Shown: positions 54,459 to 58,282, numbered from the stretch's first letter. The stretch: DNA of 64,000 nt from Escherichia coli (GCF_024502345.1 NZ_JALDNN010000001.1); one strand, 5' to 3'. The notes: generated from the sequence alone by a model not told the origin. A program made the numbers and translations.

Positions 54459-55791
<1,333 letters not shown>

Positions 55792-55866
55792 ATTTATTAG
55801 ATCAGGCGTGACCTGACCCATCTTTGGCACAGAGCCAAACCTGAACTGACGGACCGCTCTGTGCCA

Positions 55867-56208
55867 TTACCTGACGTTGTATTCTTTTATGTTAACACCC
55901 TTGATACTGTATATACCTGTCCGCTTAATTCGCTTGCCCTTTTTATTCGTAATAGTTGCTGTAAGTGTACTGCAGCGAATGGAATGACGTTCATCAATCA
56001 CCAGCCGAATTGCTTCTGAAGCATCTTCCACCTCTAGAAGGTCGTGAGTCTTATTTAAGCCGAATGGAACAAGGTGGAAGGCAGTTTTTCCTGATGATTT
56101 TCTGGTTATTTTTACTGGATACAACACATCACCACTTTTATGGATTAATTCAAGCTGTTCAATGTAAATCATGGCAACTTTCCTTCGTTTATTTGCATGA
56201 ATATACAA
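55867..56208 (-). CDS. Hypothetical small protein (101-113 aa) in AT-rich DNA, not recognised
   Basis: ORF MYIHANKRRKVAMIYIEQLELIHKSGDVLYPVKITRKSSGKTAFHLVPFGLNKTHDLLEVEDASEAIRLVIDERHSIRC...; low-GC context; alternative start at MIYIEQ (56172). Confidence 0.3.
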   Translation of the reverse strand: MYIHANKRRKVAMIYIEQLELIHKSGDVLYPVKITRKSSGKTAFHLVPFGLNKTHDLLEVEDASEAIRLVIDERHSIRCSTLTATITNKKGKRIKRTGIYSIKGVNIKEYNVR

Positions 56209-56668
56209 ACCGAAAATAGGAGATGCAATACAAAAGCTGTGGAAATATCAAACAGCCTCTCAATTTGGCAGACAGCGTCTGCCAAATCTTTGCCGATGGG
56301 AATTCTGCAGATGGTGTCTGCGGAATTCCCAATGGTGTTAATTCGCCAGACACTGTCTGGCGAATTTCAACATGTTGAAAAAAGAGGTAAAAAAGCCTCA
56401 TTTGGCGTAAGTTTTTTGCAGAGAACCCACGCTTATACCTTAGACTTAAATCCTTTGATAGTCGCTTGATTAGCTGCGCACCATACGCAGCCCTTGCCTC
56501 GCCACCTTGTTCAAATTCGACAATTCGTCGGCCAATTTCCCAGTATGTCGCGGTCATCAGCGCGTTAACGCTACGTACCGTTTCCGTCCGGACGCTATCG
56601 ACCAGGTGAATAATATCGTCGTGGATTTGCTGGTAGCCTGTTGAGGTTCTCTCTGAGAGCGATTCCAT
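56189..56668 (-). pseudogene. yhcG: YhcG-like (DUF1016 N-terminal domain) fragment, terminated after a palindromic repeat cluster
   Basis: ...TATYWEIGRRIVEFEQGGEARAAYGAQLIKRLSKDLSLRYKRGFSAKNLRQMRLFY... resembles the DUF1016/YhcG N-terminal motif; ORF is only 159 aa and its C-terminal third is encoded by three palindromes. Confidence 0.5.
56263..56366. repeat. Three tandem palindromes at exact 39-bp centre-to-centre spacing sharing a GCAGAC/GTCTGC-type core
   Basis: U1 56263-56287 ATTTGGCAGACagcGTCTGCCAAAT (perfect); U2 56298-56330 GGGAATTCTGCAGAtggtgTCTGCGGAATTCCC (one mismatch); U3 56340-56366 AATTCGCCAGACAcTGTCTGGCGAATT (perfect). Confidence 0.85.
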
Positions 56669-56851
56669 TATCTGTCCCTTTATATGGCGCTGCGTTGAAT
56701 AATGGAATCAGCTATACGCCGGGCATCTACCGGTAACAATCCAGATGAGCGTATTACATTGGTTTTCTTCAGATTATGCGAGGCGCTTTCCAGAAAGAAA
56801 GGAGAATTTCAGCGCCGACTCTTTTCTGAGGAGGCGGCGCTGGGACAGAGC

Positions 56852-58282
<1,431 letters not shown>

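Follow-up and report, generated by a model that had tools for sequence, protein, structure and literature searches.

REPs are intergenic, number in the hundreds per genome and flank the gene for the RAYT transposase, an HUH nuclease. In Type I HsdS proteins, as in EcoR124I versus EcoR124II, a repeat in the linker sets the spacer length of the recognition site; this repeat is not palindromic. The palindromic elements of Rickettsia are dispersed mobile repeats of 100-150 bp that occur in many unrelated genes and are absent from orthologues. Ogata and colleagues reportedly found, in 2000, that these elements lie in frame in genes and are translated as an extra peptide segment.

In E. coli, template switching is a documented process and a proposed means of conserving perfect inverted repeats; the arms of such repeats change together and remain perfect between species (PMC5941160, PMC7202029). 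PARCELs are variable-number tandem repeats in ORFs, with dyad-symmetric DNA, and are tied to horizontally moving genes; they encode a 25-residue amphipathic motif, form long arrays, lie mostly in membrane-targeted proteins whose function is unknown, and are scattered in unrelated ORFs (PMC2996958).

Here we describe a palindromic element in the yhcG gene of Escherichia coli, starting from a stretch of 64,000 nucleotides (GCF_024502345.1, NZ_JALDNN010000001.1; hereafter the window). As in Rickettsia, palindromic DNA is translated, but the yhcG element is undispersed and is present in orthologues. The likeness to REP and RAYT is that a nuclease-type gene is tied to hairpin palindromes, with orphan copies flanking yhcG in E. 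coli; here, however, the palindrome is part of the gene itself, a single locus has no more than about five copies, and the nuclease is of the PD-(D/E)XK type. With HsdS it shares the in-frame gain and loss of a short repeat in the inter-domain connector of a defence-related protein. Like the inverted repeats attributed to template switching, for which E. coli also serves as model, it has arms that change in concert; the repeats studied there are non-coding ones of Proteobacteria, whereas the yhcG repeat is coding, keeps one codon register in one family that spans bacteria, archaea and viral contigs, and is tandemly amplified in frame (PMC5941160, PMC7202029). It resembles PARCELs in being dyad-symmetric DNA that is translated; in contrast to them, its unit is 12-13 residues long, occurs in 1-5 copies in the linker of one nuclease family, and descends from an ancestral single copy; we rejected a PARCEL identity, as unit length and consensus are unrelated to those described (PMC2996958). 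We found no prior description of the yhcG palindrome in the searchable literature, where the palindrome sequences do not appear and papers on yhcG, DUF1016, COG4804 and PDC-S02 are silent on it.

Results

Three translated palindromes in a truncated yhcG

The window spans the nanE-nanK-nanQ / yhcG / gltD-gltB region of E. coli. The features of the locus, from left to right, are:

55327..55791, plus strand: nanQ (yhcH), convergent left neighbour
55792..56262, minus strand: foreign segment, 470 bp, in place of the half of yhcG that encodes the nuclease domain and of the palindrome on the 3' side of the gene
55867-56172, minus strand: ORF annotated as "transposase", 101 aa, inside the foreign segment
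56263..56668, minus strand: yhcG remnant, DUF1016_N domain plus three-unit linker
56263-56287: P3, ATTTGGCAGACagcGTCTGCCAAAT, perfect palindrome of 25 bp (11+3+11), arms ATTTGGCAGAC-agc-GTCTGCCAAAT
56297-56331: extended quasi-palindrome of P2
56301-56327: P2, AATTCTGCAGATggtGTCTGCGGAATT, 27 bp with two mismatches, both T.G on the plus strand
56340-56366: P1, AATTCGCCAGACAcTGTCTGGCGAATT, perfect palindrome of 27 bp (13+1+13), arms AATTCGCCAGACA-c-TGTCTGGCGAATT
56852..58270, minus strand: gltD, lying upstream of yhcG in the gene order gltB-gltD-yhcG, which is ancestral

P1, P2 and P3 are centred at 56353, 56314 and 56275 with start-to-start spacings of 39 and 39 bp, and both sequence reading and a repeat search bear out the exact 39-bp periodicity that the first-pass annotation of this DNA had reported. 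Also as proposed there, a yhcG-like frame, the minus-strand ORF 56189..56668, translates the palindromes as a 13-residue repeat, EIRQTVSGELTPLG IPQTPSAEFPSAK IWQTLSAK (unit by unit, IRQTVSGELTPLG / IPQTPSAEFPSAK / IWQTLSAK). On the minus strand P1 encodes I-R-Q-T-V-S-G-E-L at the conserved YhcG motif E-I-x-Q-T-x-S-x-E, and is the ancestral copy of the unit; P2 (I-P-Q-T-P-S-A-E-F) and P3 (I-W-Q-T-L-S-A-K) are the second and third units of an in-frame amplification. The array is arranged head to tail, its period is a multiple of 3 and its copy number varies between alleles, as in a tandem coding repeat (in-frame VNTR); Tandem Repeats Finder reported nothing for it, because the units are only 73-78% alike.

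The palindromes cannot be put down to chance. The core pattern CAGACNNNGTCTG occurs 2 times in the 64 kb, both within the array, against 0.06 expected, and, with 3 or fewer mismatches allowed, the P1 pattern has a single occurrence in the window against 0.00 expected. Folded as single-stranded DNA, the 121-nt stretch forms three hairpins at -39.3 kcal/mol, compared with -14.0 +/- 2.6 for shuffles (z = -9.6).

Several familiar identities were tried and rejected. Simple promoter and terminator scans around the array returned no site; for an intrinsic (Rho-independent) terminator there was none on either strand in 55700-56900, and none of the three hairpins has a run of T after it. Known binding sites such as the MetJ box, NanR sites and the like did not fit. 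A programmed -1 frameshift was considered because of the TTTTTTC that lies 10 nt upstream of P1 in E. coli, but slippery sites are absent from other homologues. Rfam 15 covariance models gave chance-level matches only (E >= 4.3, far below gathering scores).

The gene that carries the array is incomplete. Its ORF, 56189..56668, matches PF17761 (DUF1016_N; E = 1.8e-27, 96.5 bits against a cutoff of 32.8, residues 19-111), and the YhcG_C PD-(D/E)XK nuclease domain (PF06250), present in intact alleles, is absent from it; PGAP labels the remnant stretch a pseudogene without C-terminus. Homology to intact yhcG starts precisely at 56263, the outer edge of P3 (matches run from query position 484), and the frame exits yhcG into foreign sequence, reaching a stop at 56189. 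That sequence spans from just past the nanQ stop to 56262 and substitutes the 3' three-fifths of yhcG. The right end of the replacement, at the junction 56262/56263, falls inside the longer 39-bp quasi-palindrome of intact alleles; there is no palindrome at its left end. The truncation is attributable to the 470-bp replacement, and the palindromes are not to blame. The window's yhcG is a dead gene cut by a replacement abutting P3; two of its palindromes are still perfect, and its P2 has the imperfections found in intact alleles.

The array is at home in intact genes

The first-pass annotation had offered a different reading, in which a tandem hairpin array, such as a miniature repeat or an operator triplet, invaded yhcG or replaced part of it, which would also have truncated the gene. 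Invasion would suit the 78-bp difference in copy number between alleles and the presence of family copies in intergenic DNA at the locus. The comparison with intact orthologues that was proposed alongside it gives the opposite picture: the intact YhcG of K-12 and F11 (375 aa) has all three units, with the same peptide repeat and the same palindromic DNA as the window, and the P1 sequence is identical in intact yhcG of F11 and O157:H7. The single copy, which every orthologue has in frame and which Salmonella, Citrobacter and distant homologues have at these codons, is ancestral, so the array is no invader. The truncation belongs to a different, 470-bp segment, and the indel junctions display unit-register slippage with TG microhomology, not terminal repeats with target duplication.

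Nor is the element a miniature dispersed repeat, as had been suggested, there being no further copy in the window and none dispersed in the genome. An E. coli genome holds the array in one to a few places (1-4 matching places, median 2, a count of which part may be both-strand matching), and the cases inspected all lie at the gltD-yhcG-nanQ locus. A repeat of the MITE, RPE or REP type was rejected on two grounds, no other copy in 64 kb and presence at the same codons in orthologues and distant homologues. Invasion therefore appears already refuted by intact orthologues with the same array, and we assign it a negligible probability. One part of the hairpin-array reading that stands is that the constraint acts on nucleic acid rather than peptide.

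A palindrome across the DUF1016 family

An alignment of distant homologues served to search a collection of species-representative genomes, and we retained the best-scoring 80 loci of a larger candidate list, which come from Beta-, Gamma- and Deltaproteobacteria, Acidobacteria, Nitrospirae, Planctomycetes, Gemmatimonadetes, Cyanobacteria and several archaea. The LSWSHY/LPWSAY helix could be placed in 76 of the 80, the W-motif anchor failing for some loci, and palindromes were scored within 270 nt before the W motif if they had arms of at least 9 and at most one mismatch. By this measure 73 of the 76 homologues have a palindrome ahead of the LSWSHY helix, against 0.165 per 270 nt in the remainder of the same loci, and in 44 of the 76 the arms are perfect over 11 or more positions, where 0.0068 would be expected. 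Nearly all linker palindromes (95 of 97) share one codon register. Two or three tandem copies, 36-99 nt apart, occur in at least 19 genes, and arms identical to those of P1 are found in homologues from Acidithiobacillus, Comamonadaceae and Burkholderia. When viral contigs were scanned in turn, with more distant subfamilies included and again the best-scoring 80 of a larger candidate list retained, 38 of 45 distinct genes had a palindrome, with quite different cores: AATTCTCGTATCAcTGATACGAGAATT for ILVSLIREL, CAATTTGCTACACAcTGTGTAGCAAATTG for ICYTLCSKL and GTCACGCAcTGCGTGAC for HALRD. The family has roughly 25,000 detectable members, and among those surveyed the linker contains 0-5 units. We conclude that the palindrome is in all likelihood an old, integral part of yhcG (DUF1016 / PDC-S02) nuclease genes, nearly family-wide.

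The AlphaFold2 model of a one-unit allele has motif residues 101-110 in a low-confidence loop (pLDDT ~53) between helices 84-96 and 115-122. The palindrome codons are thus predicted to form a flexible linker between the N-terminal helical and PD-(D/E)XK nuclease domains, before the LSWSHY helix. The nuclease domain resembles NucS/EndoMS, Can2 and NucC, and Kosinski et al. described it as related to YraN-like and archaeal Holliday-junction resolvases and to DUF91 (PMC1189080); a PDB sequence search returned no relative. The intact O157:H7 allele matches PADLOC PDC-S02, a candidate defence family (E = 4.3e-136, residues 8-344). Among the 76 loci, hsdM lies upstream in 16, hsdS downstream in 10, and an integrase is a neighbour in 9; the hsdM-hsdS context of the family is also in the literature (PMC9881135). 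No neighbour is constant across these loci, and there is therefore no evident partner gene acting on the hairpin. Domain shuffling at the hairpin found no support, as pairwise identities of the N- and C-terminal domains correlate (r = 0.59, with one artefactual outlier).

Constraint on nucleic acid

Over 92 aligned elements and 12 stem positions, standard pairs make up 92.8% of cells, and slid controls pair at 18-46%. Two-sided changes occupy 168 cells, where shuffles give 46 +/- 6.6 and none of the 500 attains that count, and one-sided intermediates are few, the pattern by which an inverted repeat maintained by template switching is recognised. The left arms hold 29 distinct 5-nt middles, and pairing at the variable middle positions 6-9 seems to fit a base-paired stem better than a duplex operator. 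Positions 2-8 are paired in 88-92 of the 92 sequences and the innermost pair is relaxed (65% paired). This geometry points to an intrastrand stem of about 11-14 bp with a 3-nt loop.

Codon choice follows the palindrome. In the motif, TCT makes up 91% of Ser codons (8.6% in the remainder of these genes), ATT 96% of Ile codons (25%) and ACA 76% of Thr codons (17%). The surveyed genes have a mean GC content of 56%, and the palindrome is retained over a range of 23% to 68%. Two viral loci (L108 and L122) carry ATTCGCCAGACAGTGTCTGaCGAAT, essentially the E. coli P1, read two nt out of register as EFARQCLTN. Because each unit is a palindrome of its own, residues within units co-vary as base pairing dictates: R occurs with G-E, P with A-E, W with A-K and V with A-Q, and further C with G-K or D-K and L with G-E or A-E. 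Arm covariation, fixed rare codons and the second reading frame together place the constraint on nucleic acid and not on peptide.

The same observations bear on the notion that selection sees the 13-residue peptide and that palindromy is a side effect of Q-T-x-S. The peptide conserves I, T, L/V and S, and Q-T-x-S is able to encode CAGAC..GTCTG. Against this, the codons fixed in the motif are rare elsewhere, pairs of residues vary together just as base pairing requires, the same DNA is read in another frame, and the peptide falls in a low-confidence loop. Codon usage and the frame shift appear already to contradict a protein-level repeat, which we find scarcely credible.

A hairpin could act in DNA or in RNA. 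On the sense strand, positions 2-12 contain 5 G.T and 15 A.C states and one-sided states are rare, in palindrome sets that were selected with at most one mismatch and with G.T scored as a mismatch, which biases against seeing wobble pairs. This lack of preference for G.T over A.C speaks against selection of an mRNA stem and fits a DNA hairpin or templated copying; G.U-type pairs are not tolerated in the stem, which points to DNA. An mRNA hairpin in the yhcG transcript might control translation across the boundary between the domains, or the processing or stability of the transcript: RNA suits a stem and 3-nt loop just as well, the element lies within the transcribed and translated region in every homologue, and the fold is strong, both in the array as DNA and in the 33-nt windows at each gene's energy minimum, which average -17.7 kcal/mol. 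The lack of G.U preference on the sense strand is unusual for selected RNA stems, however, and the element has no Rfam family, no U-tract terminator pattern, and orphan copies that persist outside genes. We regard control by an mRNA hairpin as very unlikely.

Unit gain and loss in E. coli

The order gltB-gltD-yhcG-nanQ is common to Salmonella, Citrobacter koseri and Pseudocitrobacter, which indicates ancestral synteny. The Salmonella yhcG has one palindrome, AAATTCCGCAGACAcTGTCTGCGGAAT, at codons E-I-P-Q-T-L-S-A-E, and that of C. koseri has one with a single mismatch; two to three occur in Pseudocitrobacter and in other E. coli alleles, the arrays of Pseudocitrobacter and of the 382-aa E. coli allele having a 36-bp period. 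E. coli alleles range from one unit to three and fall into a 39-bp and a 36-bp series. One-unit alleles lack P2 and show three distinct junctions (..SGELTPLPWS, ..SAKSFPLPWS and ..SGESFPLPWS), two-unit alleles encode 362 and 370 aa, and three-unit alleles 375 and 382 aa. P3 extends to a 39-bp palindrome in intact alleles and is perfect over this length in strain GF60. Divergent alleles are 92-100% identical except over nt 221-400 (48-73%), a patch that ends with the array. Among E. coli protein clusters we found no frequent intact allele without a palindrome.

Two O157:H7 strains have identical flanking proteins. Over 1,050 nt their yhcG genes differ solely by a clean 78-bp deletion, with TG microhomology at the junction, that removes exactly two extended palindromes and hence two units. 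Among 5,426 complete E. coli genomes the states of the locus, given as rough BLAST coverage classes and not as an allele-by-allele count, were:

3,414 of 5,426 genomes: three-unit array (at least 80% of the 121-nt query)
719 of the 3,414: three-unit array in truncated form, as in the window
2,829 of 5,426: intact P3-to-downstream junction
472 of 5,426: two-unit allele of the 36-bp series
947 of 5,426: whole yhcG deleted, one palindrome remaining

The one-unit junction probe was unfit for this census, because BLAST bridges the 78 bp and joins two pieces in three-unit strains.

Copies of the family also lie outside genes. One is 14 nt 3' of the yhcG stop in E. coli, between the convergent yhcG and nanQ, and has two compensatory variants, ATTCTGCAGACAnTGTCTGCAGAAT and ATTCTCCAGACAnTGTCTGGAGAAT; in K-12-type genomes, where the gltF-yhcADEF operon is inserted, another is 14 nt 3' of the gltD stop. 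The 947 Nissle-type genomes have nanQ, one perfect 33-bp palindrome with 16-bp arms, and gltD, all between being deleted. The left flank of this palindrome matches that of the nanQ-side copy and its right flank that of the gltD-side copy, which implies a deletion between these two copies. In E. coli the element is therefore a site of unit gain and loss, with rearrangement endpoints at or near palindromes, and the recombination hotspot envisaged in the first-pass annotation is upheld in the sense that the array behaves as a hotspot of recombination or slippage. The element also outlives a change of reading frame and persists as orphan copies outside genes.

Discussion

We suggest that the array is an in-frame triplication of an ancestral yhcG palindrome, and that this palindrome is a cis-acting DNA hairpin kept symmetric by template switching. 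Taken as a whole we think this explanation probable. Our confidence in its structural and evolutionary account is high, and in its functional step, that a cis-acting hairpin or cruciform does something for the gene, it is low. Hairpin-templated copying during replication (template switching, with quasi-palindrome correction) would keep the arms complementary; template switching explains two-sided changes without one-sided intermediates. Slippage across the hairpins would create and remove 36- and 39-bp units. The weakest step is that retention of the palindrome in about 90% of 121 very distant genes, through a frame change and over 23-68% GC, may reflect selection for a cis-acting DNA hairpin or cruciform. 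The energy scan, which is free of ascertainment, counts against the explanation: the strongest 33-nt hairpin of the gene falls in the linker in only 59 of 121 genes, compared with 22 expected.

The main rival is pure mutational maintenance without function, in which a palindrome that originated a single time perpetuates itself in a tolerant linker, one arm being copied onto the other by template switching and units being duplicated and deleted by slippage; flanking peptide fixes its site, and no hairpin function is selected. Template switching alone might match the arms without selection, and the conserved I, T, L/V, S peptide may anchor the site. Perfect arms with almost no one-sided intermediates are what such a process would leave; orphan and pseudogene copies remain perfect or lengthen (the 16-bp arms in Nissle, the 39 bp in GF60, the dead gene of the window), extra tandem copies with no ancestral role also remain paired, and the literature backs conservation of inverted repeats by template switching (PMC5941160). 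Palindromes are deletion-prone, though, and the linker tolerates 0-5 units, so neutral loss should be common; instead the distant genes have kept the palindrome at the rate and over the base compositions given above, and frequent intact E. coli alleles have not lost it. We consider a purely mutational by-product possible, if on the unlikely side.

As to what a cis-acting hairpin would do under our preferred explanation, our guess is that it might be recognised by the gene's own junction-resolvase-like nuclease, or might throttle expression of the nuclease half. A bolder form of the first idea is that the hairpin or cruciform has co-evolved with the YhcG/DUF1016 nuclease since before the spread between bacteria and archaea and is the enzyme's own cis target, which on present sequences we hold to be doubtful and rather speculative. 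If it were true, the resolvase-like nuclease domain would recognise a structure like a four-way junction, and the outcome might be self-regulation, sensing of supercoiling or replication stress in infection, or breaks that diversify the gene's own linker.

Coding sequence seldom shows selection or self-templating that acts on DNA structure, and here it dictates amino-acid covariation, fixes rare codons and outlasts a frame change. The host family is a widespread, uncharacterised nuclease, a candidate phage-defence gene often found within Type I restriction operons, and the palindrome offers a testable handle on YhcG function, namely whether the enzyme sees the hairpin. The array is also a natural system for measuring the concerted evolution of palindrome arms, and it accounts for the indel polymorphism concentrated at this familiar E. 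coli locus, whose states differ in K-12, BL21, O157:H7 and Nissle.

The foreign segment that truncates the window's yhcG was found at this locus only, in about 720 of the 5,426 complete E. coli genomes, including BL21 and ATCC 8739. Its 101-aa "transposase" ORF has no match in Pfam, NCBIfam or PADLOC and a non-significant one in PHROG (E = 0.19). A module of about 405 bp, some 85% identical to the segment, occurs in Yersinia, adjoining an integrase, and in Enterobacter, near prophage-type genes. Homologues of the 101-aa ORF in other genera lie in varied mobile contexts.

Family palindromes in other reading frames and outside genes

The 27-bp perfect palindrome P1 (56340-56366), the first of three spaced 39 bp apart in the truncated yhcG, has a near-identical counterpart, ATTCGCCAGACAGTGTCTGaCGAAT, at about nt 1750-1790 of two viral contigs (L108 and L122; positions in the collected yhcG/DUF1016 loci are local to each locus). 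In the DUF1016 subfamily of these contigs it is read in a different frame, giving the peptide EFARQCLTN. The shift in frame is shared by L106, whose version of the palindrome has diverged. Next to the main gene, Altiarchaeales and Nanoarchaeota each have a second DUF1016_N-type reading frame (L095, 2150-2560, and L092, 3100-3330, respectively), which is divergent and has its own palindrome at the same motif: ILQTVSAKLSWSHY in L095 and NSETLSRKLSWGHY in L092. The orphan family member of an Ignavibacteriae MAG, AAGATTTTGCAGACAGTGTCTGCCAAATCTT (L061, 202-232), precedes copies that are more degenerate; it lies in AT-rich intergenic DNA, with a DUF1016 gene 2.3 kb downstream, and is comparable to the orphan copies 3' of the yhcG or gltD stops at the E. 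coli locus.

Variation among E. coli yhcG alleles

In E. coli GF60, whose yhcG allele has two units, perfect palindromy extends over the whole 39-bp unit (L009, 1994-2032), GGGAAAGATTTGGCAGACAGCGTCTGCCAAATCTTTCCC, so that the palindrome has expanded to fill the repeat unit. E. coli TUM2805 represents another independent inactivation of yhcG, the gene being broken at about codon 78 by an IS3-family element (L007, 1245-2458), with the first palindrome ~70 nt downstream of the insertion.

An ORF on the plus strand also lies across the palindromes of the window:

56197-56469, plus strand: 90-aa ORF with the peptide repeat IWQTASAKS / ILQMVSAEF / IRQTLSGEF

Its repeat mirrors that of the minus strand because the palindromes are read on the opposite strand. 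It is no evidence for a gene, the mirror image arising mechanically from the palindromes.

The foreign segment and flanking inverted repeats

The 470-bp foreign segment (55792-56262) replaces the 3' part of yhcG, and a further inverted repeat lies beyond the yhcG remnant:

55827-55865: inverted repeat GGCACAGAGC ... GCTCTGTGCC, 10-bp arms and 19-nt loop, directly after nanQ at the start of the segment
55867-56172, minus strand: 101-aa ORF WP_000639208, annotated "transposase", inside the segment
56810-56842: inverted repeat CAGCGCCG ... CGGCGCTG, 8-bp stem, immediately 3' of the gltD stop

WP_000639208 matched nothing in Pfam, NCBIfam or PADLOC, and its sole PHROG match was non-significant (E = 0.19); the "transposase" label seems to be without support. 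Together with ~85 nt upstream, the ORF forms a module of ~405 bp, found at about 85% identity in Yersinia canariae, where it adjoins an integrase, and in Enterobacter cloacae, near prophage-type genes, and at 72% in Pantoea, near an IS fragment. The segment opens, on the nanQ side where the inverted repeat lies, with ~85 nt that have 77-81% matches at unannotated sites elsewhere in some E. coli genomes, and may constitute a small repeat family. The gltD-side inverted repeat is found in genomes where gltD adjoins yhcG; in K-12-type genomes the equivalent site has a yhcG-family palindrome instead.

Neighbourhood of DUF1016 genes

In a sizeable minority of loci L016-L095 the DUF1016 gene lies between the Type I restriction-modification genes hsdM (upstream in 16/76) and hsdS (downstream in 10/76). 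A tyrosine integrase lies upstream in 9 of the 76 loci.
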